Positions 1-17,866 of a DNA stretch of 64,000 bases are shown piece by piece. The position numbers and the translations under genes are program-made. Under the pieces are notes generated by a model that worked only from the letters and a program-made list of their open reading frames with translations, was not told the DNA's origin and did no database searches. This stretch comes from Candidatus Poribacteria bacterium. Lineage in GTDB: Bacteria; Poribacteria; WGA-4E; WGA-3G. The DNA is taken from positions 79,281 through 143,280 of the forward strand of contig JAPPES010000085.1 of assembly GCA_028824125.1 (NCBI GenBank). The letters run 5' to 3'. Each line of letters opens with the position of its first letter. Positions within the stretch are counted from its first letter, which is position 1.

Positions 1-67
1 AAAATAATTAAGTCGTATTCAAAACATTAATTATGTGAACAATCAAAATACAATGAGGAGTTAAATC

Positions 68-961
68 GTGTTAAAAAAAACTGTTTCTGTTGTCACATTG
101 ATGATCCTATTTAGTTTAAGTGTAACGTTACTCGCTAACGAATGGGCGACCTACTATTTTCCAGGCAAAGTTGGCAGTTCCTGGGTTTATGAAGATCAAG
201 ATGGCAACGAATTAACGCGCTATGCTGTTGAAGAAAAAAATGTTGAAGGCAATACGTTTCGCGCCTTTGAGTATGAACCTGAGATAGATGATTGGGAAAA
301 ATATATGTATGCTGTGCAACCCTTTTTGTATCAAGTCGGTGATGAATGGGTTGCTTTCTACGTTGGAGATGATATAGAAAACGCGACCGAGTCAATCCTG
401 AGTAAAAAACTTGACGAAACCCTTGCGATCATCCGTCAACAAACCGCAGGGCAACTCCCTCCCGGTGTCACGATTGATTTCGACTATACTATTGACCCCA
501 AAGCACAAGATTATTTTTACCTATTTCCAACACCTGTTGCATATAATGAAGAGTGGGTCGCTATGGAGTTAGATGTAAAAGTAGGGATGACCATGGACAT
601 TCAAGGAGCACCCGTTGAAATTCCTGCAGCACTTAAAACCGTTTCATCTACGACTAATGTTGTCGAAACAGGTAACGTTGTTGGAAAGGAAACTGTTGAA
701 ACTGAAGCAGGTACATTTGAAGAGTGTTTAAAAATTGAATATAGAACCAAAACAACTGTAGACACCGAACTCCCTCCCGAATACAAGCAGCTCCTTCCAG
801 AACAACAAACAAATGAATCTGTTTCAACCTTGTGGTTAGCCCCTAATGTCGGAATTGTCAAATTCAAGAGTGAACAGGAGAATTCAGATGAGGTGAAAAC
901 GCTTGAATTAAAAAGTTACGAAATCCAATCTGATGGATCCGAAAACGGAGAAAGTAAATAA
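68..961 (+). CDS. Secreted protein, member 1 of a tandem paralog family of unknown function. It has a signal peptide and one ~280-aa module.
   Basis: The ORF has an N-terminal hydrophobic signal peptide and is preceded by an AGGAG RBS before a GTG start. It shares the motifs [44 protein letters not shown] and LELKSYEI with the next four genes. Confidence 0.75.
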   Translation: MLKKTVSVVTLMILFSLSVTLLANEWATYYFPGKVGSSWVYEDQDGNELTRYAVEEKNVEGNTFRAFEYEPEIDDWEKYMYAVQPFLYQVGDEWVAFYVGDDIENATESILSKKLDETLAIIRQQTAGQLPPGVTIDFDYTIDPKAQDYFYLFPTPVAYNEEWVAMELDVKVGMTMDIQGAPVEIPAALKTVSSTTNVVETGNVVGKETVETEAGTFEECLKIEYRTKTTVDTELPPEYKQLLPEQQTNESVSTLWLAPNVGIVKFKSEQENSDEVKTLELKSYEIQSDGSENGESK

Positions 962-1021
962 TCTGTAGGACTTGCTTGGACTGCTGTCAGATTGATGATT
1001 CTTTATAAGGTGACATTCCGC

Positions 1022-1987
1022 ATGTTGAAAAAACTGTGTCCTTTCTTGATATTTTTCCTAACTTTTTATTTCAGTACGACTCTAATAGGAAACGAATCCA
1101 CGCAAAAGTATTTTCCAAGTACGCTTGATAGTTTTTGGGTTTATGAAGACCAAGGTGGGAACGAGTTAACACGTCGTGTGATTGAAGGAGAAGAAATTGC
1201 GGGGAAGACATATTACGGTTTCAGTTACGAACCTGTGTCAAAAGATTGGATAGATTTTAACCGTTACATGCATCTTTCTCTGTTTAATATTGGGGAGGAG
1301 TGGATAACGTTTCTTGTCGAAGAAGAAATAAAAAAAGCCGTCAAGGCACGCTTAACCAAAGAGATGGAAATTTTCTCTAAATTGGCAAAGAGTTCTTTAG
1401 AAAACAACACCCCACCCGAACTCAACCTTACTGTTGAGTTCAACTATCATGTGGAAGTAGAAGCAAAAGACGAATTCAATTTACTCCCGATCCAAGCAAC
1501 TCCGGATGAAGAATGGGACACATCACAAATTAATGCCAAAATCACCATGAAGTTCGACATACAAGGATTGCCAGACTTTCAGGGTGCTGCAGAAATGCCT
1601 GAAATCACACTTGATTTTACTATCGTTGAAACGGGAAAAATCCTTAACACAGAAACTGTTGAAGTGGCCGCTGGAACGTTTAAAGATTGTTTGAAAATCG
1701 AGTATAAAACGAAAACAGAAATGATAGCATCCCATCCATCAGGAACAAAAGATTTACCAGGTGAATCGATTAACACATTATGGTTAGCACCCAATGTTGG
1801 AATTGTCAAATTTCACCAACAATCTGATAAGATTTTTCTCAATATGATGTCAGATAGAGATGCCGTTGATGCGACAATGTCTGATGAAGAAGCTGCAGAG
1901 ATTACTGCTCCTTCAGTCAAGACTTATGAATTAAAGAGATACGAAATAGTGTCTGAAGTTTTACCAAACGATGACAACAAAGAATAG
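1022..1987 (+). CDS. Secreted protein, paralog family member 2. The start was moved from the ORF-track 992 to the internal Met of MLKKLCPF.
   Basis: The protein has a signal peptide and the motifs [46 protein letters not shown] and YELKRYEI. The other paralogs all begin MLKK/MLKR, which supports the later start. Confidence 0.75.
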   Translation: MLKKLCPFLIFFLTFYFSTTLIGNESTQKYFPSTLDSFWVYEDQGGNELTRRVIEGEEIAGKTYYGFSYEPVSKDWIDFNRYMHLSLFNIGEEWITFLVEEEIKKAVKARLTKEMEIFSKLAKSSLENNTPPELNLTVEFNYHVEVEAKDEFNLLPIQATPDEEWDTSQINAKITMKFDIQGLPDFQGAAEMPEITLDFTIVETGKILNTETVEVAAGTFKDCLKIEYKTKTEMIASHPSGTKDLPGESINTLWLAPNVGIVKFHQQSDKIFLNMMSDRDAVDATMSDEEAAEITAPSVKTYELKRYEIVSEVLPNDDNKE

Positions 1988-2035
1988 ATAATTTTCAGAA
2001 TTATACCAACGAGAAAACAGATATGGAGGGTTCTC

Positions 2036-2968
2036 ATGTTAAAAAGATTTTGTCCGGTATTGATATTACTTTTAGTCTTTGGTTTTAGCACAACCTTGTT
2101 AGGGAACGAGTCAGTGCAAAAATATTTTCCTGGCACTTTAGATAGTTTTTGGGTTTATGAAGACCAGGATGGAAATGAGTTAACACGTTATTCAATTGAA
2201 GGCGAAGAGATTGCCGGTGAAACGTATCTTTCTTTTAGTTATGACCCTGAGTTAGAAGATTGGGCGAATTATAGTTGTTTTATTCATCCGGGGCTATATA
2301 GTGTGAATGATGAAGGGATCACACTTGTTGTTGACAAAGCGGTAGAGAATGCCGTTGAAGCGCGTCTTAAAAAGGAAATGGATATGTTCGTAGAAATTTT
2401 AAAACAAGAAGTTTTTAGCCAAGCACCGCCAGGTGTAGAAATACCCGCCTTTAATTTAGATGTTGATGTTGAGGCACAAGGGCAAGAAAATTTTTTGCTG
2501 CTACCTGAAAATGTTGTGGCGGATGAAGAATGGGACGCAAACCAAGTCAAAGTCAAGGCTAAGATGACCATGGAAGGGCCAGGCGTTGTTACGAGTGATG
2601 AACCGTTGGGGATGGATTTCACGATAATAGAAACAGGAATTGTGCTTGGCACAGAAACAGTTGAAACGATTGCTGGCACGTTTAAAGACTGTTTGAAAGT
2701 TGAATATCGGACAGAAACAACCGTAGTATTGACCCCAACGCCTTCACCTGATGAAGTAGCACCTCCAGGAGAAACCGTAACGACAGTTTGGTTTGCACCT
2801 AACGTTGGAATCATAAAATTACATCAAAAATCGGGATACATGTTCTTAGATATGATACCAGATGATGCTGATTTTCCTGTAGCTCCGCCTCCTCCTACTG
2901 AGAGAACACTGGAATTAAAAAGATATGAAATCAAAACCGCTGAATCGGAAAGTGATACTGAGAATTAA
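2036..2968 (+). CDS. Secreted protein, paralog family member 3.
   Basis: A GGAGGG RBS precedes the start. The protein has a signal peptide and the motifs [46 protein letters not shown] and LELKRYEIK. Confidence 0.75.
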   Translation: MLKRFCPVLILLLVFGFSTTLLGNESVQKYFPGTLDSFWVYEDQDGNELTRYSIEGEEIAGETYLSFSYDPELEDWANYSCFIHPGLYSVNDEGITLVVDKAVENAVEARLKKEMDMFVEILKQEVFSQAPPGVEIPAFNLDVDVEAQGQENFLLLPENVVADEEWDANQVKVKAKMTMEGPGVVTSDEPLGMDFTIIETGIVLGTETVETIAGTFKDCLKVEYRTETTVVLTPTPSPDEVAPPGETVTTVWFAPNVGIIKLHQKSGYMFLDMIPDDADFPVAPPPPTERTLELKRYEIKTAESESDTEN

Positions 2969-3015
2969 TATACAAGAAGTCAGACATCACCTTCAACTGA
3001 ATTGGAGAAAATATC

Positions 3016-5634
3016 ATGTTAAAAAGACTGAACATCATTTTAATACTTTTATTCGCCTTTAGCTTTAGTGGGACACTGCTGGCAGATGAATCTGCAAATA
3101 AATATTTTCCATCAACGCTTGGAAGTTTCTGGGTTTATGAAGACCAAGATGGTAACGAGTTGACGCGTCATGCGATTGAAGGTGAAGAAATTGCTGGTAA
3201 GACTTTTCCTGCGTTCAATTATGAACCGGAGTTAGAGGACTGGGCAGAATATAGTCCTTTTATTCGTCCGTCTCTATATCAAGTTAGTGATGCAGGAGTC
3301 ACATTGTTTGTAAGAGAAGAGGTCGAAAAGGCAGTCAAAGCACGGCTTACCAAAGAAATAGAGACTGTAATTACAAAGTCTGAGGAAGAAGATCCTTCTT
3401 TTAAGCTTGACTACGATGTGGAAGTGGAAGTACCAAACATATTTTATATTCTGCCGGAGATTGTAACTAAGCAAAAAGAGTGGGAGGCAGTAAAAATAAA
3501 TGCCAAAATCACTACAGAATTTGGTGAAGCCAATTTCAATATTATTGAATCCGGAAAAATACTCGGCACACAATCTGTCAAAACATCTGTTGGCACGTTT
3601 AAAGACTGTTTGAAAGTTGAATACCGCACTGAAACAATCTTGCAAATATCTCCTCCAGACGAAGATGTCGGGTCCCCTGGCGAGTCGATAACAACACTTT
3701 GGTTAGCACCTAACGTGGGGGTTGTCAAGGTCCATCAAAAAGTCGAAGATATGCTTTTAAAAGCTATGCTTGACCTTAAGCTACCATCTGCAGCCACCGT
3801 TAGGACACTTGAATTAACAAAATACGAAATCAAATCAGCTGATACTAAAAGCAGCGAAAACAATTCTATTTCTGTTGTAAAATCTACAGAAGAAAAAGTT
3901 GAAACTGAAAAAGCAAAGTCGTTATCAAACGACACACAGCGTATAAATTATCTTCCCAGTCCGTTGGGAAGTTTTTGGGTGTATGAAGACCAAGATGGTA
4001 ATGAATTGACACGCCGCGCAGTTGAAGGCGAGGAAATAGTGGGTAAGGCATACCAATCCTTTAGTTATGAACCTGAATTAAAAAAATGGATGGATTATAG
4101 TTTCTTTATTCGTCCGTCTCTATATCAAGTTAGTGATGCAGGAGTCACATTGTTTGTAAGAGAAGAGGTCGAAAAAGCAGCCAAAGCACGGTTAAGTAAG
4201 GAAATGGAGTTATTGAGAGGAATAATAGAATTAGATGATCCAGATGCAGCAAACTTCACCTTCATAATTGAAGCAGAAGCACAAGACCAGGTCCATCTAC
4301 TACTCACCCCTGTAATCCCCTACGAAGAATGGGACGTAAATCAAATAAAAGCCAGTCTTAAATTGCAATTTGAAGGTGACCAACCGTCAATAGATTACAC
4401 CATTATAGAAACGGGAATTGTCACCGGAACTGAAGATGTTGAAACAGCTGCAGGTGTATTTGAAGATTGTCTAAAAGTTGAATACCACACAGAAACAACC
4501 GCAATTATCACCCCTGACCCTCGACCTGGCGAGAAAAAATCACCAGGAGAAACTATGACAACTGTATGGTATGCTCCCAACGTCGGAATCGTAAAATTAC
4601 ACCAAAAAAGAAAATACGCATTTTTTGATATGATTCCAGATGATGATAGTTTTCAAAAACCGCCTGATCCAAAACCGATAACGCTTGAATTAAAGAAATA
4701 TGAAATCAAGACAGTTGATCTTGAAAGTGCCAGGAAACAGTCTATTACGACACCCAAGCCACTAAAAGGTGATGCCGAAAAAGGAAAAACTAAAACAAGT
4801 AACGCACAATCCCCGAATTATTTTCCTGGCACATTAGATAGTTTTTGGGTTTATGAAGACCAAGATGGTAATGAATTAACACGCCGTGCTGTTGAAGGTG
4901 AGGAAATTGCTGGTAAAACTTATCCTGCATTCAGTTATGAACCGGAGTTGGAGGATTGGGCAGAATATAGTTGGTTTATTCGCCCTCCTTTGTATCAAGT
5001 GAGTAATGCTGGTATCACACTTGTTGTTAGCGATGAGGTTGAAAAAGCAGTTAAAGCACGCCTTAAGAAAGAGGTAGGTATTCTCACTGACGCAATAAAA
5101 CGGGATGCTCCACTGGACGCAGGTATTGACGCTGATATTAAGGTACAGGGACAAAACCAGTTATTCCTCCTCCCCGACACTATTATTCTTTTCAATGAGG
5201 AGTGGGACGTTAACCAGATTGAAGCAAACGTCAAGATGAAATTTCTGGGTGGAGGTGTCCCAGAGGATCAACAATTGGTAATTGATTTCACGATTTTAGA
5301 AACAGCAATTATCTCTGGTACTGAAACTGTTGAAACACCCGCTGGAAAGTTTGAAAACTGCCTGAAAGTTGAATATCGTACAGAAACTACTGCAGCAATG
5401 ACGCCTGCCCCACCACCCGATGAAGTAGAACCGCCAGGAGAAACCGTAACGACTGTGTGGTATGCTCCAAATGTCGGAATTGTCCAATTTCGTCAGGAAA
5501 CGAATTACATTTTTTTAGAAATGATTCCAGACGATGAAGATCTTCCTGTGCCACCTGGACCTAAAACGAAAACGTTTGAATTAAAGAAATATGAAATCAA
5601 ATCTGAAGAACCAGAAAATGAAGAAAGCAATTAA
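3016..5634 (+). CDS. Secreted protein, paralog family member 4. It is an in-frame fusion of three complete modules under a single signal peptide.
   Basis: The 872-aa product repeats the full module three times, with [14 protein letters not shown] at aa ~35, ~325 and ~610. Each module ends with a (T)LELxKYEIK motif. Low-complexity linkers separate the modules. Confidence 0.75.
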   Translation: MLKRLNIILILLFAFSFSGTLLADESANKYFPSTLGSFWVYEDQDGNELTRHAIEGEEIAGKTFPAFNYEPELEDWAEYSPFIRPSLYQVSDAGVTLFVREEVEKAVKARLTKEIETVITKSEEEDPSFKLDYDVEVEVPNIFYILPEIVTKQKEWEAVKINAKITTEFGEANFNIIESGKILGTQSVKTSVGTFKDCLKVEYRTETILQISPPDEDVGSPGESITTLWLAPNVGVVKVHQKVEDMLLKAMLDLKLPSAATVRTLELTKYEIKSADTKSSENNSISVVKSTEEKVETEKAKSLSNDTQRINYLPSPLGSFWVYEDQDGNELTRRAVEGEEIVGKAYQSFSYEPELKKWMDYSFFIRPSLYQVSDAGVTLFVREEVEKAAKARLSKEMELLRGIIELDDPDAANFTFIIEAEAQDQVHLLLTPVIPYEEWDVNQIKASLKLQFEGDQPSIDYTIIETGIVTGTEDVETAAGVFEDCLKVEYHTETTAIITPDPRPGEKKSPGETMTTVWYAPNVGIVKLHQKRKYAFFDMIPDDDSFQKPPDPKPITLELKKYEIKTVDLESARKQSITTPKPLKGDAEKGKTKTSNAQSPNYFPGTLDSFWVYEDQDGNELTRRAVEGEEIAGKTYPAFSYEPELEDWAEYSWFIRPPLYQVSNAGITLVVSDEVEKAVKARLKKEVGILTDAIKRDAPLDAGIDADIKVQGQNQLFLLPDTIILFNEEWDVNQIEANVKMKFLGGGVPEDQQLVIDFTILETAIISGTETVETPAGKFENCLKVEYRTETTAAMTPAPPPDEVEPPGETVTTVWYAPNVGIVQFRQETNYIFLEMIPDDEDLPVPPGPKTKTFELKKYEIKSEEPENEESN

Positions 5635-5696
5635 TGGTGTCAGACACATCATTTTTCCTTAAACTCAATCTATAATTGTCAATTAAAGGAGTTATT

Positions 5697-6587
5697 ATGT
5701 TAAAAAAAGTTTGTGCTGTCCTGATATTTTTGTTCGTCTGTAGTTTTAGTGCAACCCTACTGGGAAATGAGACAGCGAAAAAGTATTTTCCCAGCACACT
5801 TGGAAGTTTTTGGGTATACGAAGATCAAGATGGCAATGAGTTGACGCGTAAGGCGGTTCAAGGTGAAGAGATTGCAGGTGAAATGTATCATGCTTTTGAA
5901 TATGAACCGGCATTTGAAGAAAATTGGGAGAAGTATGAGTATTACGTCCATCCCACGCTTTTTAAGGTAGAGGACACAGGAATTAAGTTCTTGATTGGTG
6001 ATGAGGTTAAGAAGGCTTACAAGGAGCGGCTTACTAAAGAGGTAGAGGCTACTGTCCAACGTCCAGTCGGACAGTCAGTTTCTACTTCTAACTACGATGT
6101 AAAGGTAGAAGTAGAAGTACAAGACAATTTCTTCTTGCTTCCTATACCTTTCGCCCTCAACGAAGAATGGAATTCAATCTGGATAAAACCTAAGGTTAAA
6201 ATAACACTGAGTTTTGGAAACTCTGGTGTTGAGGCAGAATTGGCTGGAATGTCGCGGGTAAGTAACTTCTATTTTACAATTATAGAAAAAGGTATTATCA
6301 CTGCCAAAGAAACCGTTGAGACACCTGCTGGCACATTCAAAGACTGTTTGAAAATTGAATACCGGACAGAAACTGTGATGCCAACATTCGCAGGACAAGG
6401 CGCTCCTACAGCTGGTGAATCTGTTTCAACATTGTGGTTAGCTCCCAACGTCGGGATTGTGAAATTTCACCAAGATGCTGAAAGACCTATTGTCAGCGAT
6501 TTCAACGATCCTCATACCCTAACACAAGTGAAAACACTTGAGTTGAAGAAGTATGAAATTAAAACAGATGCAGCGAGGACTGAATGA
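5697..6587 (+). CDS. Secreted protein, paralog family member 5. The start was moved from the TTG at 5676 to the ATG of MLKKVCAV. Its stop overlaps the hemB start.
   Basis: An AAAGGAG RBS lies 6 nt upstream of the ATG. The protein has a signal peptide and the family motifs. Its TGA stop lies inside an ATGA shared with hemB. Confidence 0.7.
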
Positions 6588-7561
6588 GCGTTTTTCCTAT
6601 TTATCGTCCAAGACGGTTACGCGCAAATGAAAACCTGCGTCGACTTGTCCGAGAAACGAGTCTGTCTGTAGACGATCTTATCTATCCGATGTTTGTTGTC
6701 CACGGAGATGACACGGCAATAGAAATTTCTTCTATGCCGGGATGTTACCAATATTCTATTGATCGGCTTGTTAAAGCTGCGAAGGATCTTGCATCGCTTG
6801 GAATTCCCGGGACGATCTTGTTCGGAATTCCTGAAACGAAAGATGCACTTGGATCGGAAGCTTATGCCGAAGATGGTATCATTCAGCAGGCGGTACGCGC
6901 CATTAAGGATGCTGTTCCTGACCTACTTGTGATTACAGATGTTTGTCTGTGTGAATATACCGATCACGGACATTGTGGTATCGTGGAAGGCGGAGATGTG
7001 CAGAATGATCCAACACTTGACTTGCTTGTTAAAGAGAGTGTATCGCACGCGCAGGCAGGGGCTGATGTCATTGCTCCATCGGATATGATGGATGGCCGTG
7101 TCGGCGCAATTCGTGATGCCTTAGACGAAGAAGGCTATGAAAATATACCTATAATGGCGTATTCGGCAAAATACGCTTCTGCTTTTTATGGTCCCTTTCG
7201 TGAAGCGGCGGAATCAGCACCGCAATTCGGGGACCGCCGTTCATATCAGATGGACCCAGCGAATGCCGAGGAAGCACTACGAGAAGTGGCACTGGATATT
7301 GAGGAAGGCGCAGACATTGTGATGGTGAAACCCGCACTCTCATATCTTGACGTTATCCATCAAGTGAAGACAGAATTTCAGATGCCTGTTGCAGCCTATA
7401 ACGTCAGTGGCGAATATGCTATGATAAAGGCAGCCGCACAGAATGAATGGATTGACGAAAAACGCGTAGCACTGGAGGTCTTAACAAGTATCAAACGTGC
7501 TGGTGCAGATATGATTTTGACCTACTTCGCAAAGTCGGTCGTCGAATGGCTTGAAAATTGA
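6584..7561 (+). CDS. hemB: Porphobilinogen synthase (delta-aminolevulinate dehydratase).
   Basis: The N-terminus is RPRRLR. A zinc-type Cys cluster [14 protein letters not shown] is present. The match to HemB family proteins runs the full length. Confidence 0.9.
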
Positions 7562-7595
7562 GGTGCGGGTAATAGTAAAACCTATAATTAAGGGA

Positions 7596-7740
7596 CATTT
7601 CTGTAGCGTAAACTTCCAGTTTGCGTCAAATATGCACAAACTAACAGTTTGTGCTACAACTTCTATTGTCCGTTATGTCTCCAAAACAGGTTTATCAAAG
7701 TGTCCCAATAATTTCAAAGTTTACTATGAGTAGGTTCGAT
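7596..7740. repeat. MITE-like repeat, family A. Its terminal motif is TGTAGCACAAACTT-like. It carries an ~85-bp tail that is near-identical to 43985-44070.
   Basis: The sequence gtagcgtaaacttccagtttgcg...gtttgtgctacaac recurs at about 16655, 20650, 43840, 57690 and 60965. The ORF-track ORF 7551..7733 lies inside this element and is probably spurious. Confidence 0.6.
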
Positions 7741-7810
7741 AATAAAACCGTTCCTACCGTTGATGTATTTACATAATTTAGATTTTACAAATTAGAATTG
7801 GAGGAACGAA

Positions 7811-9094
7811 TTGGAGAGTAGCAAATCTTTATCAGCGTGGCAAAAATCACAACAATTTATCCCTGGCGGTGTCAACAGTCCCGTCCGTAATTTTAGCAAG
7901 GTTGGTGGACATCCCCGCTTTATTGATCGCGGTGAAGGGGCCAAGATTTACGACATAGACGGAAACGAGTATATCGATTATGTCGCTTCATGGGGACCAT
8001 TAGTTTTGGGGCATGCACATCCTGATGTGGTCGAAGCCGTCAGGACTGCAGCAGCGCGAGGCACAAGTTTCGGTGCTCCGACAGCATTAGAGACAGAACT
8101 TGCAAAAACTATCGTCAACGCAGTGTCTTCCATTGAACAGGTCCGACTTGTCAACTCAGGTACGGAAGCGACAATGAGCGCGATTCGTGTCGCACGCGGT
8201 TATACAGGACGCAATAAAATCATCAAGATAGATGGTTGCTATCACGGACATGTAGACTATCTATTGGCAAAAGCGGGTTCAGGCGTTGCAACTTTCGGTC
8301 TTTCGGATAGCGGTGGCGTGCCAGAGGATTTCGCACGGAATACACTCACTATCCCGTTTAACGATCCTGAGGCATTGACAACAACAATTGAGGCTAACAC
8401 GGACGAGATCGCCTGTCTCATACTGGAGCCTATTATGGGCAACATGGGGATTATCCCACCACGTGAGGGGTACCTCAATGAACTTCGTGAGATTACTGAA
8501 CAGCATGGGATCGTGCTTATCTTTGATGAGGTAATTACCGGTTTTAGGGTCGCTTATGGTGGCGCACAGTCATATTATAACGTTACACCAGATATGACAT
8601 GTTTAGGGAAGATAATCGGTGGTGGTTTGCCTGTCGGTGCTTACGGCGGAAAACGGGAGATTATGCAGTGTGTTGCCCCAGAAGGCGATGTGTATCAGGC
8701 AGGCACATTATCTGGTAATCCGTTGGCTGTCACTGCAGGTATAACGACTTTGAAAAAGCTGGCGGAACCAGGGGTTTATGAGCAACTTGAAAACCGCGCA
8801 TCTACTCTGGCAGACGGAATAGCAGAAGCAACCCAAAAACATGGAATTGATGCATGGCATAGCCGCGTCGGTTCAATGCTGATGCTATATTTTACAGCAG
8901 AGACTGTTACTGATGCAGATGGTGCACGAACAGCCGATATAGAACGTTATCGTCAGTACTTTTGGGGACTCCTTGAACGTGGTGTTTATGTCGCCCCTTC
9001 CCAATTTGAAGCCGGATTTGTATCCTTAGCGCATTCCGAAGAGGATATCAATATGACCGTTCAAGCTGCAACTGAGGTAATCGCAAATCTGTAA
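7811..9094 (+). CDS. hemL: Glutamate-1-semialdehyde 2,1-aminomutase.
   Basis: The N-terminus reads GGVNSPVR, followed by a class-III aminotransferase fold. The similarity to HemL is full length. Confidence 0.9.
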
Positions 9095-9112
9095 CAGTAG
9101 TAAAGGAATTGA

Positions 9113-10093
9113 ATGTCAAGTTTTGATCAGATTGTAAATTTAATTGCTGACGATCTTAGTGCTGTAGAGGCGAAACTGACTGAAAATACAGCGAGCGAAT
9201 ATAGTTTTGTAGATATGGCGGTTCAGCATGTTGTAGAAGGAGGCGGTAAACGCTTACGTCCTATCCTTGTTGTGCTATCTGCAAAAGCGCGTGGATACGA
9301 AGGTGCGGATGCACACACACTCGCAGCAGTTGTTGAACTCATCCATGTTGCATCCCTTGTGCATGATGATGTGCTTGATGAAGCTGCAATCCGCCGTGGA
9401 CGTGAAACATTACAGACAAAATGGGGCAATAAGGTGGCAGTACTTGTTGGGGATTACTTGCATGCCCGCGTTCTTTCAATGCTCGTTTCCCGCCGCGCAG
9501 ATGACCCCGCAATGGCGATCCTTGCCGATACCACGCAGGCAATGTGTGAGGGGGAAGTCATCCATGCCTATAAAAGTGGAGATTTTGATATATCAGAAGA
9601 GGAATACCTAAAGATAATTAGTTTTAAGACCGGTAAGTTGATTGCCGCCTCTTGCACGCTCGGTGCGATCCTCGGACCTCATGACACTCAGCAGATTGAG
9701 GCATTCACAACCTACGGCAAACAAATTGGAACTGCATTCCAAATTGTAGATGATCTGCTTGATTTCGTGGAAGACCCAGAAAAATTAGGAAAAAATGCTT
9801 TTGGTGATCTTCGTGAAGGGAAACTTACTTTTCCTATTATACATACCCGAAAAGTGTGTGATGATAATGAGAAACAAACGCTTGAAAAAGTGCTAAATCC
9901 TGACACCGATGAAACCGAAGCTATTACCTTTGTTGAATCTTTATTCCAAAAATATGGTGTGGAAATTCACTGTTTGGAAATTGCACAGAGTTATGCCGAC
10001 CGTGCTAAAACTGCGTTAACAAATATACCACAATCGGATGCGCGTACAGCCTTGCAAAACCTTGCGGATTACGTCGTTTCACGGGATTCATAG
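9113..10093 (+). CDS. Long-chain trans-polyprenyl diphosphate synthase (IspB/HepT-like).
   Basis: Two aspartate-rich motifs are present: LVHDDVLDEAAIRRG and FQIVDDLLDF. A KTGKL motif is also present. Confidence 0.8.
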   Translation: MSSFDQIVNLIADDLSAVEAKLTENTASEYSFVDMAVQHVVEGGGKRLRPILVVLSAKARGYEGADAHTLAAVVELIHVASLVHDDVLDEAAIRRGRETLQTKWGNKVAVLVGDYLHARVLSMLVSRRADDPAMAILADTTQAMCEGEVIHAYKSGDFDISEEEYLKIISFKTGKLIAASCTLGAILGPHDTQQIEAFTTYGKQIGTAFQIVDDLLDFVEDPEKLGKNAFGDLREGKLTFPIIHTRKVCDDNEKQTLEKVLNPDTDETEAITFVESLFQKYGVEIHCLEIAQSYADRAKTALTNIPQSDARTALQNLADYVVSRDS

Positions 10094-10097
10094 TAAA

Positions 10098-11219
10098 ATG
10101 TTTTATCCAGCACATATAAATCTGCAAAATAGAGCATGCCTTGTTGTTGGGGGGGGCACTGTTGCTGAACGTAAAGTTGTCTCTATGCTCATCAGTGGTG
10201 GAAATGTAACTGTGATTAGTCCAGACGCAACCGAATTAGTTATATTCCTTGCTGAGATAGGCACAATACAATGGCACAAACGGCAGTTTAAGACAGGAGA
10301 TACGAGCGGATATTTTCTTGTATGTGCCGCAACCGATTTTACAGATATAAACACCGCAGTATACGCTGAAGCACATAAAGAGAAGAACATTCGTTTAGTC
10401 AATGTCGTTGACGTTATCCCACAATGTACATTTGCTGCTGCGTCTGTAATAACAGATGGCAAACTCATGATTAGTATCTCCACAAGTGGTATGAGTCCAG
10501 CGACAAGTCGGCGCATCCGAGTACATTTTGAAGAGACGTTAAAGACGTCATCTTTATATACGCTTGGATATGAAAATGGAAAACCTGTACCAATTGAAAA
10601 TCAAAGATTGCCATATCCAGTTTACCTGTTATTGGAAGATCGCAAGTGTGTTGTCCTATATGAGCAGGAAACATCGGAAATTGAACGTAGAGTCTCACTA
10701 TTACGTCAGTGTGGCGCGATAGTGGTGCATAATCCTATGGACTTTGATGATGCATTCCTTGTGATTTCCGATACATCTATAAGTGATGTTTCTGATGGCT
10801 TCTTACAAGAGATTCTCGATAGACCAAACTCTGCTGACTTCTTTACACCGAATCTCGTTATAGATGATAACCTTATTATTAGCATATCAACAAAGGATAG
10901 CACAGATGTAAGCAAGATGGAACGTTTACATGCGAAACTCACGCATCAGTTTGAAAACAGCGGTTACGGTGCATTTATTGACCTGCTTGGCAAGCGGCGT
11001 CCGGAAGTCCTCAAAACTTTTCCTACGTCCAAAATGCGCGGCGATTTTTTTGAGAAACTTATCGGACACGTCGTAGACAGTCCACAAACATGTTGTCTAA
11101 GTCTTACAAACCCTGCGTGTTCTGCCGAATGCCTTTTCAACTGGGTACGACATGGTAAAATTAAGGACGCAAACAACTTTATATCGGAGTTTTTAAGCGC
11201 ACAGCAAGCAAAAATATAA
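10098..11219 (+). CDS. Precorrin-2 dehydrogenase / sirohydrochlorin ferrochelatase-like protein (SirC/Met8 family) with an internally duplicated degenerate domain. The start was moved to ATG 10098, just after the upstream stop.
   Basis: The N-terminal Rossmann signature LVVGGGTVAERKV is typical of SirC and the CysG N-terminus. The second half (aa ~190-370) repeats the same fold pattern in degenerate form. Confidence 0.65.
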   Translation: MFYPAHINLQNRACLVVGGGTVAERKVVSMLISGGNVTVISPDATELVIFLAEIGTIQWHKRQFKTGDTSGYFLVCAATDFTDINTAVYAEAHKEKNIRLVNVVDVIPQCTFAAASVITDGKLMISISTSGMSPATSRRIRVHFEETLKTSSLYTLGYENGKPVPIENQRLPYPVYLLLEDRKCVVLYEQETSEIERRVSLLRQCGAIVVHNPMDFDDAFLVISDTSISDVSDGFLQEILDRPNSADFFTPNLVIDDNLIISISTKDSTDVSKMERLHAKLTHQFENSGYGAFIDLLGKRRPEVLKTFPTSKMRGDFFEKLIGHVVDSPQTCCLSLTNPACSAECLFNWVRHGKIKDANNFISEFLSAQQAKI

Positions 11220-11222
11220 CGA

Positions 11223-12080
11223 ATGTCAACAGAACTCCTGCATTTTCTTTTTCTTATTACCGTATTAGTCTATTTAGCAGCCAGTATTTTTCAGGCACTC
11301 TACCTTGCAATAGGGGAACGATCTGAAACGCCGACTCTACGTCCACGGATCGCCTCAATCGCTTTCTGGGGAACGTGTCTTGGGTTTGCTTTGTTAACGC
11401 TTTTCATTGGACTCTGGTGGTCATTTCAAGGACATTTCCCAATGACGCACTGGACGGACTCAACAGCTTTCTTTGCGTGGGCAATCACCTTAATCTACCT
11501 GATTGTTGTTCGAATGACGCAGCTACATGCTATTGGAAGTTTTGTGATGCCTCTTGCATTCATTACAATCCTGATTTCCTATAGTTTCTCCAGAAATACA
11601 TCAGCATTGCCAGAAGATTTGGAAACCTATTGGTTAGTTCCACACGTTACACTTATTCTGCTTGCTTATGCTGCATTTATCACAGCCTTTGGGTTTGGAC
11701 TGCTTTACCTGATGGCAGAGAAAAAGATCCGTGAAAAGCAACATACGATCTTTCAAAACCTTCTTCCGTCCCTCGGTGCTTCGGACGAACTTGGTTTCCG
11801 ATGTACATTACTCGGAGTGATCCTATTGACAACGGGGGTAATTGTCGGGGCACTATGGACTCAGTATATTAATGAGGAAGTGAGATGGAGATGGCTTGAT
11901 TCTAAAGTTCTTTTTACTGTCGTGACATGGGTCATCTATGTTGTGCAAATTGGTATCCGTCAAGTGTGGGGTTGGCGTGGCAGAAAAGCAGCGTATTCTG
12001 AAATCGCCGGTTTTATTGCCGTACTCTGTACCTATATTGGTGTGAATCTGTTCTTAGACAGCGCACACACATTTCGGTAA
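11223..12080 (+). CDS. Cytochrome c assembly protein family membrane protein (CcsA/HemX-like).
   Basis: The protein is a multi-TM protein with a Trp-rich segment (WWSFQGHFPMTHWTDSTAFFAW, QVWGWRGRK). Its position between sirC and hemA matches the Bacillus hemAXCDBL arrangement. Confidence 0.7.
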   Translation: MSTELLHFLFLITVLVYLAASIFQALYLAIGERSETPTLRPRIASIAFWGTCLGFALLTLFIGLWWSFQGHFPMTHWTDSTAFFAWAITLIYLIVVRMTQLHAIGSFVMPLAFITILISYSFSRNTSALPEDLETYWLVPHVTLILLAYAAFITAFGFGLLYLMAEKKIREKQHTIFQNLLPSLGASDELGFRCTLLGVILLTTGVIVGALWTQYINEEVRWRWLDSKVLFTVVTWVIYVVQIGIRQVWGWRGRKAAYSEIAGFIAVLCTYIGVNLFLDSAHTFR

Positions 12081-12119
12081 TATGAGATAGTTGCACAAAG
12101 ATGTGACAAGTGCAAAATT

Positions 12120-12149
12120 TGACATTCTATCCTCAATTGTGATATAATT
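12120..12149 (+). promoter_or_regulatory. Near-consensus sigma70-type promoter (TTGACA-18-TATAAT) about 50 nt upstream of hemA.
   Basis: Read directly from the sequence: tttgacattctatcctcaattgtgatataatt. Confidence 0.45.
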
Positions 12150-12199
12150 TACTAACTATCGGACATTCGCAAGTATTCAGTATCCGACGAGCAAGTATC

Positions 12200-13501
12200 A
12201 TGAATCAGATTGTATCTATTGGGACAAGCCATCATATAGCACCCGTTGAATTCAGAGAAAAGCTGGCTTTTTCCGAAGAACAACTCATAGAATCCCTCCA
12301 TCATCTGCGCGAATCACATAAGGTTGATGAGGCAGTAATTCTCTCTACCTGTAATCGCGTAGAGGTTTATGGGGTCGCTAATTCCCAGCGAACAGCCAAA
12401 TCACCTGTTTCAGTCTTGTTTGACTTTTTATCTGATTACCATCGAATTAGTGTGGATACACTCAAAAAATGGAGCTATCGTCACCATAACCTTGATACCA
12501 TTTTACATCTTTTCCGGGTTACATCCAGCCTTGATTCAATGGTTGTGGGTGAATCTCAAATTTTAGGTCAAGTCAAAGAGGCTTATGATTTTTCACGTTC
12601 AGCAGGAGGTGCAGGGGCAATCCTAAACCGCCTTTTCGCGAAGGCATTCAGTGTTGGTAAACGTATACGTTCAGAAACCACTATTGCTGCAGGAGCTGTG
12701 TCGATCAGTTATGCAGCGGTAGAACTTGCTAAAAAGATTTTCAATACTTTAGAAAACAAAACCGTAGCGATTATTGGCGCGGGTGAGATGAGCGAACTGA
12801 CTGCCAAACATCTCGTCGCGAATGGTGTTTCAAAAGTAATCGTTGCGAACCGTACTTATGAACGTGCTGTCAAGATTGCCGAGAAGTTTAAAGGCGTCCC
12901 TGTTGCTTATGAGGAAAACCTAAACTTTCTCATTGATGCGGATATCGTCATCAGCTCCACAGACGCCCCCTATTATCTCATTGAACGCAAACCGCTTGCT
13001 GAGATTATGAGAAAGCGGAAACATCGGTATATGTTTCTCATTGACATCGCTGTTCCACGCGATATTGAACCGGACGTGAGTAAAATCAACCACGCCTTTC
13101 TCTATAACATTGATGATTTAGAAGCTGTTGTAGCGTCTAATCTCCAAGAACGGAAACAGGAAGCGGTTCGCGCTGAGCAGATTGTCTCTGAAGAGGCGAA
13201 GCAATTTCACGACCAATTGCAAATCCTCGAAGTTAATCCCACCATTAAAGCACTACATCAGCAGTTTCAACAGATAGCCGAATGTGAACTCAAAGTCTGC
13301 TTGGGTAAGACTACATTGTCAGACACACAAGAAGATGCTGTTGCATCTATGACACAAGCAATCGTTAAAAAACTTCTACATCACCCGGTAGAAAATTTGC
13401 GCCACGCTGTTAACGATGGCAATGCTGATCATGGGCAATATGTTCATGCCCTCCAAGAGTTGTTCGCTTTGGACAATAATGACGATAAGGAACAGGAATG
13501 A
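12200..13501 (+). CDS. hemA: Glutamyl-tRNA reductase.
   Basis: The N-terminus reads IVSIGTSHH...LSTCNRVEVY with the catalytic Cys. An NADP-binding GAGEM motif is present. Confidence 0.9.
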   Translation: MNQIVSIGTSHHIAPVEFREKLAFSEEQLIESLHHLRESHKVDEAVILSTCNRVEVYGVANSQRTAKSPVSVLFDFLSDYHRISVDTLKKWSYRHHNLDTILHLFRVTSSLDSMVVGESQILGQVKEAYDFSRSAGGAGAILNRLFAKAFSVGKRIRSETTIAAGAVSISYAAVELAKKIFNTLENKTVAIIGAGEMSELTAKHLVANGVSKVIVANRTYERAVKIAEKFKGVPVAYEENLNFLIDADIVISSTDAPYYLIERKPLAEIMRKRKHRYMFLIDIAVPRDIEPDVSKINHAFLYNIDDLEAVVASNLQERKQEAVRAEQIVSEEAKQFHDQLQILEVNPTIKALHQQFQQIAECELKVCLGKTTLSDTQEDAVASMTQAIVKKLLHHPVENLRHAVNDGNADHGQYVHALQELFALDNNDDKEQE

Positions 13502-14424
13502 GCAGCTCGGTTACAATTGGCACGCGTGGCAGCCAACTTGCGCTATGGCAAGCATCCTTTGTAAAACAGCAATTAGCACACCATTTCCCCGATGTTGAAG
13601 TTAACCTCAAAATCATCAAAACCACCGGTGATACTATCCAAAATCGTTCTTTGGTGGGATTAGGCAAAGGCGTTTTTACCAAAGAGATAGAAATCGCGCT
13701 ATTAAACGGTGATATAGACCTTGCTGTTCATAGCCTTAAAGACCTCCCAACAGAATTACCCCAAGGACTTTGTATAGCCGCGATCCCAAAGCGTGAAGAC
13801 CCACGCGATGTACTCGTTACATCCACAGGGTTCTTCTTAGAAGATTTGCTGCATGGTGCGAAAATCGGCACTACAAGCCCACGGCGAAAGGCACAACTTC
13901 TCCATCTACGTCCAGATTTGCAAGTTATTGATGTCCGAGGCAATGTTGATACTCGGATCCGTAAACTTGAAGAAACCGATCTTGATGGGATTATTCTCGC
14001 TGCGGCAGGGATTAAACGCCTCCTTAAGGAAGAAGTTATCACGCAATTTTTTGAAATAGAGCAGATGGTGCCAGCAGTTGGACAGGGAGCATTGGCGATC
14101 GAAGCGCGTGAAGGAGATAGCGACATTGAAAACCTACTTGTTCCTTTGAACGACACAACGACAGTTGCCGAAATTACCGCTGAAAGAACTGTATTGGAAA
14201 GTCTCGGCGGCGGATGTCAAGTGCCGATAGGCGCGTATGCTGAACACGTTGAGGGTGAACTCTCACTTATCGGCACTGTATGCCATCCTGAAGGGAGAGT
14301 CCGTATTGTAGAAAGCGCAGCGGGAATGTTAGACGATGCACAGCACTTGGGCAGAATTGTTGCTGAAAGATTGCGTAACAGCGGAGCAAATGAACTGTTG
14401 AAAGCACTGTCAGATGTGGAATGA
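13498..14424 (+). CDS. hemC: Hydroxymethylbilane synthase (porphobilinogen deaminase).
   Basis: The N-terminus reads IGTRGSQLALWQA. The start shares an ATGA overlap with the hemA stop. Confidence 0.9.
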   Translation: MSSSVTIGTRGSQLALWQASFVKQQLAHHFPDVEVNLKIIKTTGDTIQNRSLVGLGKGVFTKEIEIALLNGDIDLAVHSLKDLPTELPQGLCIAAIPKREDPRDVLVTSTGFFLEDLLHGAKIGTTSPRRKAQLLHLRPDLQVIDVRGNVDTRIRKLEETDLDGIILAAAGIKRLLKEEVITQFFEIEQMVPAVGQGALAIEAREGDSDIENLLVPLNDTTTVAEITAERTVLESLGGGCQVPIGAYAEHVEGELSLIGTVCHPEGRVRIVESAAGMLDDAQHLGRIVAERLRNSGANELLKALSDVE

Positions 14425-14426
14425 AT

Positions 14427-15836
14427 TTATTCTCTTTGCGCACAAGGCACAATAATAGAATCCACCATCCCGTGTAATATCTTCTTATCGGCAGGACAGA
14501 CAGCTGCCTGAATTCCACCGAGTTTCACAGTATCACCTACAACAAAATAGTATGGACGCAGAAGTGGGCGGGCGGGCAGCTCTTGCATATCCGCAGTTTC
14601 AAAATCGTAGTATTGCATCCTTACACGTTGGGCGGTGTGGAATTGCTGTAATACGTGTGGTGTTTTCTCAAAAGACGCAAGACCATTTTCAATTGCAGCT
14701 CCCCACTCCTCTGTTGACAGATCATGCCCGATTTTGACGCCACGGCTACCCCAGGCGAGTTCCGAAAACCCCGAAGGTTTGATTACTAATTCCCGTTGCC
14801 GTTGTGTTACAATACTGAGTTGTCGCCAGTCCGTTACAGGCATATTCTCTATTTCCAAGTTTGGAATAATAGCATGCGGCGGTAAAGGACGCGGATCAAG
14901 GACCCACGTCTGTGGAATCGCTTCCTGTAGAAACGGATAGGTTTTTTTGCCAAGTTGACGTTGCCAAAAAGGTTGAAGTGAGGGATGGTGGAAGAGCGCG
15001 AGACACAATTTCTCTTCTAAATAGGCTTTCGGAGGAGGTGTCATCACAACGGTGCGCTTCTTCGCACTATAGAAGATTAATTCTGCTTTCGGGATGTTCG
15101 GAAGATCAAATAACTCATAGAAGCGGTAAACGACATCAACCTCCATCTTACCATCTGCATTTTGAACAAATAGCCCATCTTCGGTAAAGAAAATCTCGTG
15201 AGGTTTAACGGCGGCAGTTCTGAGTCCAGCATCACAAAGTGCATTAGCAAGCCACGCCATTTCTGGTCTATAATCTTCAGATTCGTCTGAAACAACAATT
15301 GCAAGTGTAGGATTATCCTTCTTTGCTAAAGCGCGGATCATTTCCGCATAGGAATTCACCATGCCATCTTTCCCGCCGATGATGGGATAGCCAAGTTTCG
15401 CATACAACCTCGCCAAGCAACCTGTCGCACCGATGAAACCAGGGATAGAATCAAGCTCTGTTATTATTTTGCTGTTGTCCGTAGTCGGTAAAATATCAGG
15501 GCGTATGACGCCAGGCAGTTGGCTTTTGAAGCGGTTCATCCGTCCCTGCTGGATGACACTTTCAGGTTTACCAATATCTAAATATTCTGCTACCCAAGCG
15601 GGTTGAATCCCTCTCGCGCTTTGGGAATAGAGCAAGTTGCAAGCGCGATAAAAACTTAATAGGTGCGGACCGAGTTCCTCAAACCAATTCAAGTCCTCTT
15701 GTGAAATCCAAAACGGTTCCGGTGAAATTCGCCATGATGTATTACAATCGGGGTGAACCTCCCGTTTTTCTGATGAAAATAATTTTTCCTTCGATATCTC
15801 ATCGTTGATTAACAAACATATCTGTTTTGCATCCAA
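14427..15836 (-). CDS. Circularly permuted ATP-grasp / glutathionylspermidine-synthase-like amidoligase family protein.
   Basis: VIRPDILPTTDNSKIITELDSIPGFIG and EEKLCLALFHHP segments resemble CP-ATP-grasp type 2 / GspS family signatures. Confidence 0.45.
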   Translation of the reverse strand: MDAKQICLLINDEISKEKLFSSEKREVHPDCNTSWRISPEPFWISQEDLNWFEELGPHLLSFYRACNLLYSQSARGIQPAWVAEYLDIGKPESVIQQGRMNRFKSQLPGVIRPDILPTTDNSKIITELDSIPGFIGATGCLARLYAKLGYPIIGGKDGMVNSYAEMIRALAKKDNPTLAIVVSDESEDYRPEMAWLANALCDAGLRTAAVKPHEIFFTEDGLFVQNADGKMEVDVVYRFYELFDLPNIPKAELIFYSAKKRTVVMTPPPKAYLEEKLCLALFHHPSLQPFWQRQLGKKTYPFLQEAIPQTWVLDPRPLPPHAIIPNLEIENMPVTDWRQLSIVTQRQRELVIKPSGFSELAWGSRGVKIGHDLSTEEWGAAIENGLASFEKTPHVLQQFHTAQRVRMQYYDFETADMQELPARPLLRPYYFVVGDTVKLGGIQAAVCPADKKILHGMVDSIIVPCAQRE

Positions 15837-17065: not shown

Positions 17066-17866
17066 ATGAAAGTGCAATATATCTATTCAAAATTATCCCT
17101 TATCTTAGTCATAACTATGGTCTTAGTGATACTCAGTGTTATGTCCACACACGCAGCAGTTGACAAACACACCGTTGCCGTGTGGCTCTTTGAAGAAGGA
17201 GATGGAAAGACGGTCCGAGACGCTTCTGGTAATGGACATAATGGTAAAATAACCGGTAGTCTCAAATGGGTAAAAGCGAAGTCTGGCACAGGGTTAGAAT
17301 TCCCTGGGGATGGCAGCGGTTATATTGTCGTGGATTCAACAAAAAAATTGGAGTTGGAAACACTCACGATTGAAGTGCTGGTCAAGGTAACAGGACATGA
17401 TGGTAAATGGCAGGGAATCGTCTGCAAACAGCAGGTAGGATGCACTAATCGGAACTACGGTATATGGGTGCATAATAATGAGCAGGTCCTGCATGCACAG
17501 ATCGGTGCAAATGGAGGATGTGCCTTCAACATGAATGGTACAACGCGAATCACAGACAACACATGGCATCATCTTGCTTTTACGTTTGATGGGGATATGG
17601 GGCGCCTCTACGTTGATGGTCAATTAGAGACAGAGAAAGCCAATGCGGCTACGTTTCAGAGCAACGATCCGATTACCATCGGTGTGCCGAATATTGACAA
17701 TGCTAACGGATTAATAGGTATCATTGAAGAGATACGTATCTCCAACATCGCACGAAGTGAAGATGAAATTAAAGAGGCTAAGGATATCGGCTTAGCCCAA
17801 ATTCTTAGCGTTGACCCACAATCAAAATTAACGACACGTTGGGGTTATATCAAACAGGTCCCATAA
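17066..17866 (+). CDS. Secreted LamG (concanavalin A-like lectin/glucanase) domain protein.
   Basis: The product has a signal peptide. It carries a LamG_3-like pattern (VRDASGNGHNGKITG...WHHLAFTFDG...LYVDGQ). Confidence 0.7.
   Translation: MKVQYIYSKLSLILVITMVLVILSVMSTHAAVDKHTVAVWLFEEGDGKTVRDASGNGHNGKITGSLKWVKAKSGTGLEFPGDGSGYIVVDSTKKLELETLTIEVLVKVTGHDGKWQGIVCKQQVGCTNRNYGIWVHNNEQVLHAQIGANGGCAFNMNGTTRITDNTWHHLAFTFDGDMGRLYVDGQLETEKANAATFQSNDPITIGVPNIDNANGLIGIIEEIRISNIARSEDEIKEAKDIGLAQILSVDPQSKLTTRWGYIKQVP

Follow-up and report, generated by a model that had tools for sequence, protein, structure and literature searches.

Tandem arrays of exported or surface proteins diversify through inter- and intragenic recombination, as in the repeat-domain surface proteins of host-associated bacteria. 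The closest structurally described relatives of the protein considered here are two solved DUF3108 members of ∼210 amino acids (aa): BF2203 (PDB 3fzx), deposited as a 'putative exported protein with YmcC-like fold', and BDI_3050 (PDB 4fvs), annotated as a 'putative lipoprotein'. Escherichia coli GfcB/YmcC, a lipoprotein encoded in the group 4 capsule operon, is tied to them solely via the depositors' fold label on 3fzx. DUF3108-like proteins receive only passing mention in print (PMC4364669), and nothing was found in the literature on the family in Poribacteria. We analyzed a 64,000-nucleotide (nt) stretch of a Candidatus Poribacteria bacterium contig (JAPPES010000085.1, positions 79,281 to 143,280; hereafter, the window), in which five same-strand paralogous genes, A to E (68-6587), abut hemB. 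Gene D (3016-5634, + strand), the fourth of these, encodes three DUF3108-like modules in one reading frame. Considered jointly, the observations are very probably best explained by a Sec-exported three-barrel protein that arose by stop-loss fusion and module shuffling and that would serve a non-enzymatic binding or scaffold role outside the cytoplasm. The anatomy and evolution of gene D are put forward with high confidence, and the putative binding role of the modules with low confidence.

Like BF2203, the gene D modules are predicted to be exported; BDI_3050 is annotated as a lipoprotein, whereas gene D carries an ordinary Sec signal peptide instead. A C-terminal β-hairpin motif that includes a conserved cysteine is common to both solved structures and to the modules described here. 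Unlike 3fzx and 4fvs, these modules are ∼260 aa long, possess a strongly conserved N-terminal strand pair and a 25-residue helix, and occur in tandem gene arrays with two to five modules per polypeptide, in Poribacteria only among the named matches. GfcB/YmcC is an envelope protein, as the gene D product is taken to be, but it is a capsule-operon lipoprotein, whereas gene D lacks a lipobox and has no capsule genes nearby; the YmcC/GfcB structure was absent among the 50 Foldseek matches listed, and no sequence match to it was found either. With recombination-diversified surface-protein arrays, a general class considered as a lead, the locus shares conserved module ends flanking variable loops, variable copy number, permuted order, mosaics, conversion tracts, and a raised ratio of nonsynonymous to synonymous divergence (dN/dS). 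Here, however, dN/dS is below 1, and surface exposure of the protein is putative.

Gene D encodes three complete modules behind one signal peptide

Gene D begins with an ATG and extends for 872 codons without an internal stop. Its product consists, in order, of a signal peptide, module D1, linker α, module D2, linker β, module D3, and a 10-aa tail. The features within the gene are as follows.

3016-3084, + strand: signal peptide, aa 1-23 (MLKRLNIILILLFAFSFSGTLLA); sole window of strong hydrophobicity, a lone helix in the AlphaFold2 (AF2) model
3094-3834, + strand: module D1, type 'D', an internal mosaic
3259-3329, + strand: 71-nt tract in D1 encoding FIRPSLYQVSDAGVTLFVREEVE, identical to 4105-4175
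3835-3939, + strand: linker α, aa 274-308, SADTKSSENN-S-ISVVKSTEEKVETEKAKSLSNDTQ, predicted disordered
3940-4710, + strand: module D2, type 'E'
4105-4175, + strand: partner copy of the 71-nt tract, in D2
4711-4809, + strand: linker β, aa 566-598, TVDLESARKQ-S-ITTPKPLKGDAEKGKTKTSNAQ, predicted disordered
4810-5601, + strand: module D3, type 'F'

A hidden Markov model (HMM) derived from the seven modules of the window (one each in A, B, C, and E plus D1-D3) identified exactly three full-length domains in the gene D product, at approximately aa 27-273, 310-565, and 600-862 (32-278, 315-570, and 605-867 in the stop-to-stop frame, which starts five codons 5' of the ATG), and one domain apiece in A, B, C, and E. 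The three copies of the WVYEDQ motif fall at aa 39, 321, and 611; the corresponding module ends, YEI(K), fall at aa 270, 562, and 859. An earlier note, made from the DNA letters, had proposed an 872-aa product with one signal peptide ahead of three complete in-frame modules starting at aa ∼35, ∼325, and ∼610 and with neither internal stops nor internal signal peptides. The open reading frame (ORF), the module HMM, and the hydrophobicity profile all agree with this proposal, and the starts given were about right. Each copy was also said to end in LELxKYEIK followed by a linker, which is correct for the first two copies; the third ends in FELKKYEIK, after which come the usual 10-aa tail, SEEPENEESN, and the stop codon.

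The sole strongly hydrophobic stretch of the gene D product is aa 7-21 (Kyte-Doolittle 15-residue window 2.41), and the second-best window (1.65) falls within a β-strand, which argues for one signal peptide and no internal one. AF2 modeled residues 2-21 as a lone helix with a low predicted local distance difference test (pLDDT) score. In the orthologues P0011 and P0012, the signal peptide shows at most one residue difference. Cleavage, at a site picked by eye, would separate MLKRLNIILILLFAFSFSGTLLA from DES. No cysteine is present at this junction, and the lipoprotein reading was rejected on that ground; the only cysteines of the product are at aa 198, 485, and 782, exactly one inside each module. 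Sec-dependent export across the inner membrane is all that the signal peptide would indicate. Both linkers are rich in serine, threonine, lysine, and glutamate. Neither an in-frame ATG nor a Shine-Dalgarno-like motif was found in linker α, and the ATG at 4772 in linker β is out of context; internal translation starts were rejected on these grounds.

The modules are predicted to be independently folding DUF3108-like domains

Gene D matched PF21347 (DUF3108_like, gathering cut-off 27 bits) at 74.8 bits through three stretches, and genes A, B, C, and E were also above the cut-off (36.3, 34.4, 30.9, and 38.0 bits, respectively). The seven window modules align end to end with 40-62% aa identity; D1/D2 and D1/D3 are each 53.5% identical and D2/D3 61.9%, corresponding to 64-69% at the DNA level. 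Taken together, the PF21347 matches and the end-to-end alignment represent repetition far beyond chance. Against PF11306 (DUF3108, gathering cut-off 26 bits), the single-module genes scored 15.2-16.2 bits and the 872-aa protein 36.8 bits, the latter solely through the summing of three stretches. Because the single-module genes fall below this cut-off, gene D is filed under DUF3108_like and not under DUF3108 proper. No array protein matched NCBIfam, and no enzymatic domain was indicated for the gene D product by any library searched.

A whole-protein sequence search of the PDB produced merely marginal matches. A profile of 82 family members matched 4fvs (E = 3.4e-7) and 3fzx (E = 1.9e-4), and these matches run through a shared motif, PAGtF-dC-KV-Y ... 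W-aPN-G-V. When module D3 alone was modeled by AF2 with the family alignment, the pLDDT was 89.7 and the predicted template modeling score (pTM) 0.86; the model is all-β, with a barrel-like sheet of long antiparallel strands and one 24-residue helix. Its only significant Foldseek matches in the PDB were 3fzx and 4fvs (E about 1e-7). The full-length AF2 model contains three separately folded blocks, with block means mostly of 75-90 pLDDT, and two linkers with pLDDT below 35. The overall pTM of 0.37 together with the disordered linkers predicts no fixed packing between modules, like beads on a string. The gene D product would accordingly be described as three independently folding DUF3108-like (YmcC-like fold) β-barrel-plus-helix domains on ∼35-aa disordered linkers, and several diverged barrels on one chain would provide multivalency or mixed specificity. 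Across 124 modules, variability is centered on the helix end and three loop regions, and the N-terminal strands and C-terminal hairpins are conserved.

Two other barrel classes were evaluated. An integral outer-membrane barrel of the porin, OmpA, or BamA kind was rejected (Foldseek E of 0.2 or worse, probability 0.18 or lower); the array proteins matched no Pfam outer-membrane protein family, and the module terminus is YEIK plus an acidic tail with no terminal aromatic residue. A LolA/LolB-like carrier was also rejected, with LolA-type chains reaching only E = 0.46-0.86 and no significant Foldseek match between the D3 model and lipid-binding proteins.

Module number varies among related loci

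A scan of one genome per species located the family at 30 loci, 29 of which are titled Poribacteria and one an uncultured bacterium. At 24 of the 30, several of them in complete chromosomes, the family is positioned directly upstream of hemB. These syntenic arrays contain 1 to 8 modules per locus, and their multi-module genes contain two, three, or four. The numbers of modules per gene are as follows.

Window, L001, L002, L030: 1-1-1-3-1
L003: 1-2-1-3-1
L004: 1-1-1-4, then a last gene split by an insertion
L006: 1-3-2-1
L007: 1-1-1-2-1
L008, L014: 1-2-1-1-1
L013: 1-2-1-1-1-1
L018: 1-2-1-1
L009, L016: 1-2-1
L005: 1-1-1-1-1
L010, L011, L012, L015, L017, L021: 1-1-1-1
L023, L028, L029: 1-1
L024: 1

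The 185 fetched relatives comprise 123 single-module, 39 two-module, 13 three-module, and 9 four-module proteins and a single five-module protein, P0001, which is on an unplaced 4.9-kb contig. Every multi-module protein with an intact N-terminus has a single N-terminal signal peptide. A search with a single module returned 813 relatives at E ≤ 1e-3, and all of the source-named ones were from Poribacteria. A scan of metagenome contigs added one further locus (L031) and no strain-level variants. Multi-module architecture is thus recurrent and lineage-wide.

Modules appear to have been permuted, exchanged, and converted

The genomes nearest to the window are those of L002, L001, and L007, whose hemB genes are 98.5%, 97.5%, and 96.9% identical to that of the window. 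Genes A, B, and C have collinear orthologues in all three (84-98% identical; in L001 and L002, 94-98% aa identity for A and 91-94% for B), but this collinearity does not extend to the modules of gene D. Module D3 has 93.9% aa and 94.6% nt identity to the first module of the L002 gene and 82% identity to the final module of the genes in L001 and L007. The closest relative of D1 is module 2 of the L001 gene (76.8% aa), and D1 has no partner in L002. The best partner of D2 is ≤62% identical in L001, L002, or L007, ≤69.5% in any syntenic locus, and ≤75% anywhere, where the best matches, at 70-75% aa, are P0121 and module 2 of P0001. Synonymous divergence (dS) of the displaced module pairs is 0.20-0.36, versus 0.23-0.29 for hemB; for D3 and the first module of the fourth L002 gene (g4m1) it is 0.20, and the corresponding hemB value is 0.23. 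This equivalence implies that the displaced modules are true orthologues that moved after the genomes split.

The linkers moved along with the modules. Two linker types are present in the window's clade, α (SADTxSSxNNS..VKS.E.KVET.KAK...) and β (T.DL.S..K.SITTPKPLK.DAEK.KTKTSNAQS). The α linker, found also in L001, L002, and L007, always follows a D-type module. The module ahead of the β linker is of type E in both the window and L001; in L002, it is the first module, of type F. In both L001 and L002, β is the first linker, the reverse of the order in the window. Thus, the unit order is D-α-E-β-F in the window versus E-β-D-α-F in L001, and the F-type module is first in L002.

Exchange is also evident on a finer scale. 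In a 120-nt sliding map against L001, gene D alternates between tracts of 97-98% and 60-75% nt identity, and the partner switches inside modules: positions 3016-3255 correspond to the start of L001 module 1 at 92-97%, and 3376-3855 to L001 module 2 at 80% rising to 98%. The 71-nt tracts of D1 and D2 are identical at all positions, synonymous sites included. D1/D2 nt identity is 93-97% across the tract and 48-65% around it, and the L001 segment there is 72% identical; from this pattern, the 71-nt tract is best read as the product of recent gene conversion. The four modules of the L004 gene are 75-90% identical, with near-identical linkers, which suggests a recent intragenic duplication. The signal peptide and approximately the first 55 codons of the first module (3016-3255) are 92-98% identical in nt to L001, L002, and L007, and this holds even where the rest of the first module is of a different type. 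The 5' end of gene D therefore seems to behave as a fixed 'expression site' that receives different modules by recombination.

For the modules, dN/dS is 0.16-0.5 (0.04 only for gene A versus L002), as compared with 0.03-0.10 for hemB, hemL, and ispB. Selection on the array modules is relaxed or partly diversifying but still purifying, which is not what is expected of a pseudogene. No invertible promoter, silent cassettes, simple-sequence tracts, or nearby reverse transcriptase, as signs of programmed switching, were seen at the locus. By its order and copy-number polymorphism and its mosaic and conversion tracts, gene D belongs to a recombination-diversified tandem-module class, a descriptive grouping with no curated family. 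The earlier note had placed gene D in a tandem paralog array subject to ongoing recombination and had looked to module number in related genomes for confirmation. The array setting is confirmed by the five same-strand paralogs, module number indeed differs widely among the loci, and that variation, the permuted units, the mosaic tracts, and the 71-nt identical tract all point to ongoing recombination at gene D.

Origin of the three-module gene

The modules of gene D appear, from their divergence, to be old paralogs. The earlier note had spoken of gene fusion on top of tandem duplication; the fusion is real, but the modules are not a recent triplication (53-62% aa and 64-69% DNA identity). The presence of multi-module genes and related linkers in the distant locus L030 (hemB 87% identical) indicates that the fusion is old and family-wide and not private to the window. 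At least one other fusion, at array position 2 in L003, L008, L013, L014, L016, and L018 and with a 6-8-aa linker, is clearly an independent event.

The linkers provide an indication of how the fusion may have occurred. A tail of exactly 10 aa after YEIK is found in 92 of 173 family proteins. Both window linkers have a 10-residue tail-like start followed by a TCT serine codon where C, D3, and A have TAA. What follows in each linker, 22-24 codons, falls short of a spacer plus signal peptide by ∼50 nt and has no hydrophobic core. A tail-like start with a serine codon at the stop position fits loss of the stop codon coupled with deletion of the downstream signal peptide. By eye only, α and β can be seen to share a loose pattern, SI..K...EK.K..SN.Q..NY.

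We propose that the ancestral state was a Poribacteria-wide tandem array of single-module exported paralogs directly upstream of hemB. Neighboring single-module genes would have become fused when a stop codon and the signal peptide of the next gene were lost, and the module-plus-linker unit may then have spread through unequal crossing-over. Homologous recombination at the conserved module ends, including LELKKYEIK, would repeatedly have duplicated, deleted, permuted, and patch-converted units, with the outcome that close relatives have two, three, or four modules in differing orders. In support of fusion, the deepest loci with the fewest modules, L023, L024, L028, and L029, contain only one or two single-module genes. 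Single-module states in close relatives of the window such as L010 are probably secondary deletions.

Several points weigh against this account. The stop-loss origin of the linkers is argued from position and composition only. When post-stop linker DNA was compared by local alignment with 73 gene-gene junctions, β and the tails yielded nothing, and the one A-rich, low-complexity match of α, although above all 200 shuffles, was to a long C-terminal tail in L029 and not to a spacer. The junction alignments were consequently rejected as evidence that the linkers are fossil intergenic and signal-peptide DNA. The direction of change is strictly only probable, and fission of a multi-module gene, or deletion within it, could have produced some of the single-module genes; in L010, gene 4 holds the 5' end of gene D and abuts hemB. 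With respect to the domain assignment, the PF21347 matches cover mostly profile positions 133-188 of 199, mainly the C-terminal hairpin, and the N-terminal two thirds of the module are poorly modeled by the Pfam HMM. The fold match to 3fzx and 4fvs is partial, with TM-scores of 0.37-0.49 and a root-mean-square deviation of about 9 Å.

Alternative explanations

The three-module ORF could in principle have been created by a mis-join or by tandem-repeat collapse or expansion in a short-read metagenome assembly, as the source is a contig of a metagenome-assembled genome (MAG) and the 71-nt exact D1/D2 repeat is longer than the small k-mers of some assemblers. We consider such an artefact extremely improbable. 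The modules are merely 64-69% identical at the DNA level, repeat families at the locus are at 80% identity or less, and the 71-nt tract is the longest exact repeat between any two modules, the remaining ones being ≤33 nt, which makes collapse, expansion, or mis-joining by an assembler unlikely. A separate re-assembly of the same sample from which the NCBI MAG contig derives (ENA ERZ23495471, scaffold_195) contains the identical 872-aa protein with the same neighbors. Genomes assembled independently, among them complete-chromosome records of 5-6 Mb (L001, L003, and L004), have genes with two to four modules at that array position, and in these genomes the signal peptide, the linker types, and the reading frame are all conserved. 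Next to no credence is given to the idea that gene D is a degenerating read-through pseudogene, a neutral fusion accident whose downstream modules are decaying for want of signal peptides. The several-fold higher dN/dS of array modules over housekeeping neighbors and the lack of a close orthologue for the middle module D2 would fit decay; however, the 2.6-kb frame contains no stops or frameshifts, D1 and D3 have dN/dS of 0.16-0.37 against their orthologues, well below 1, the family-invariant residues and the single cysteine are retained in all three modules, AF2 folds all three confidently, and many genomes maintain the multi-module architecture. The pseudogene reading was rejected on the basis of dN/dS and the intact frame. 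Fission, by which a multi-module gene would be ancestral in the clade and the single-module genes of L005, L010, L015, and others would derive from it by deletion or fission, is judged unlikely. The distant L030 does have a three-module gene at the same array position with a β-like linker (SATTIPLEKDEE versus SITTPKPLKDDAEK), and single gene 4 of L010, with the signal peptide and 5' end of D, resembles a deletion from the first module to the last gene. Yet single-module proteins, each with its own signal peptide, dominate the family, the loci with the fewest modules hold single genes only, and the 10-aa tail, with a sense codon where the stop is usually found, is a sign of fusion in the first place. 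Fission and fusion are not exclusive, and later losses to one module are likely within the window's clade.

Other alternatives concern what the modules do. They might be carriers of tetrapyrrole, heme, or other small hydrophobic ligands tied to the heme operon: the array runs in the same direction as hemB-hemL-...-hemA-hemC, the last array gene and the hemB start overlap (ATGA), the array-hemB juxtaposition is retained at 24 Poribacteria loci, and the module forms a closed barrel that has a helix inside or beside it and a single conserved cysteine, also present in 4fvs and 3fzx. This carrier role is nevertheless very doubtful, since the 24 loci are all from one phylum, so that synteny may be mere inheritance, and other family members are located elsewhere, beside M61 peptidases and extracytoplasmic function (ECF) sigma factors. 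In addition, there is no conserved His, Met, or CxxCH motif, and Foldseek matches to heme-binding barrels were not significant (E above 0.3). Any link between the array and tetrapyrrole metabolism is speculative. A broader scheme, in which the hemB-proximal array is a recombination cassette system by which sponge-associated Poribacteria diversify and multimerize an exported barrel, with tetrapyrrole or heme as ligand or in host or phage interaction, is decidedly improbable. If it were true, the multi-module gene would be a hot spot for assembling new combinations, and the array would be translationally coupled to hemB.

Putative function and significance

An extracytoplasmic binding or scaffold role, made multivalent by fusion, is tentatively proposed for the module from its non-lipoprotein Sec-type signal peptide, its predicted soluble barrel fold, the lack of enzymatic matches, and its attachment to other extracytoplasmic multi-domain proteins. 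P0064 combines a BlaR1 peptidase M56 domain, leucine-rich repeats (LRR), and ExbD with a C-terminal module; P0065 resembles it in its precomputed domain list, the source for that protein. P0063 comprises a signal peptide, a module, PEGA, and FGE-sulfatase domains.

Gene D is already public, its product being identical to P0002, NCBI 'hypothetical protein OXI43_11250 [Candidatus Poribacteria bacterium]'; its domain is a known DUF, and it represents no new kind of system or mechanism. With its conserved flanks, the hemB marker, and many complete genomes, the locus is a well-anchored example of the passage from tandem paralogs to multi-domain proteins, and it may illustrate the steps of stop loss, signal-peptide loss, and shuffling of module-plus-linker units at conserved module ends. 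With 813 relatives detected and as many as eight modules at a locus, the DUF3108-like domain would have undergone a Poribacteria-specific expansion, and within this uncultured phylum of sponge symbionts the family is a candidate for a role in the envelope or at the host interface.

Array genes, downstream cluster, and other neighbors

The array and the first gene downstream are arranged as follows.

68-961, + strand: gene A, single-module DUF3108-like paralog that has a signal peptide of its own (MLKKTVSVVTLMILFSLSVTLLANE); ORF, PF21347 36.3 bits, one full module
992-1987, + strand: gene B, single-module paralog; ORF, Pfam, module HMM
2036-2968, + strand: gene C, single-module paralog; ORF, Pfam, module HMM
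3016-5634, + strand: gene D, 872 aa; ORF, three modules
5697-6587, + strand: gene E, single-module paralog; ATG at 5697 behind AAGGAG
6584-7561, + strand: hemB, porphobilinogen synthase, first gene of the tetrapyrrole cluster; Pfam ALAD E = 1.6e-158

The true start of gene B is likely the ATG at 1022 (MLKKLCPF...). Gene C is the closest relative of D2 and D3 (58-62% aa). For gene E, a program-made ORF list starts at the TTG at 5676, and the ENA re-assembly has a 296-aa gene; the end of gene E and the start of hemB overlap within ATGA. The last array gene likewise ends 4 nt past the opening of the hemB frame in most of the 24 related loci. Promoter and terminator scans of positions 1-9200 returned sites no more frequently than in shuffled sequence, and operon structure is therefore not readable from those scans.

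The tetrapyrrole biosynthesis cluster directly downstream of the array (6584-14424, same strand) contains hemB (ALAD), hemL (class-III aminotransferase), a polyprenyl synthase, an NAD_binding_7/SirC-like protein, a CcsA/HemX-like 'cytochrome c assembly' protein, hemA (GluTR), and hemC (PBG deaminase). A 469-aa ORF on the opposite strand right after hemC (14427-15836, - strand) had no Pfam match at E ≤ 1e-5. Farther along are ordinary envelope-type genes, encoding a Laminin_G_3/concanavalin-like lectin-domain protein (17066-17866) followed by a beta-lactamase-family (PF00144) protein (17886-19130).

In L004 (OZ244616.1, 13449-15459), the last array gene, beside hemB, is split in two by an insertion of ∼1.2 kb containing a 274-aa ORF that matches Pfam RRXRR (E = 1.2e-7); from this content, the insertion is possibly a small mobile element. 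Away from the hemB locus, single-module genes in L019, L020, L022, L025, and L027 adjoin genes for 800-1000-aa M61 glycyl-aminopeptidase proteins (e.g., L020, 4504-9926). These M61 proteins have an N-terminal partial copy, ∼65 aa, of the conserved hairpin motif of the module, and at some of these loci an ECF sigma-factor sequence is located just upstream in the same open frame.

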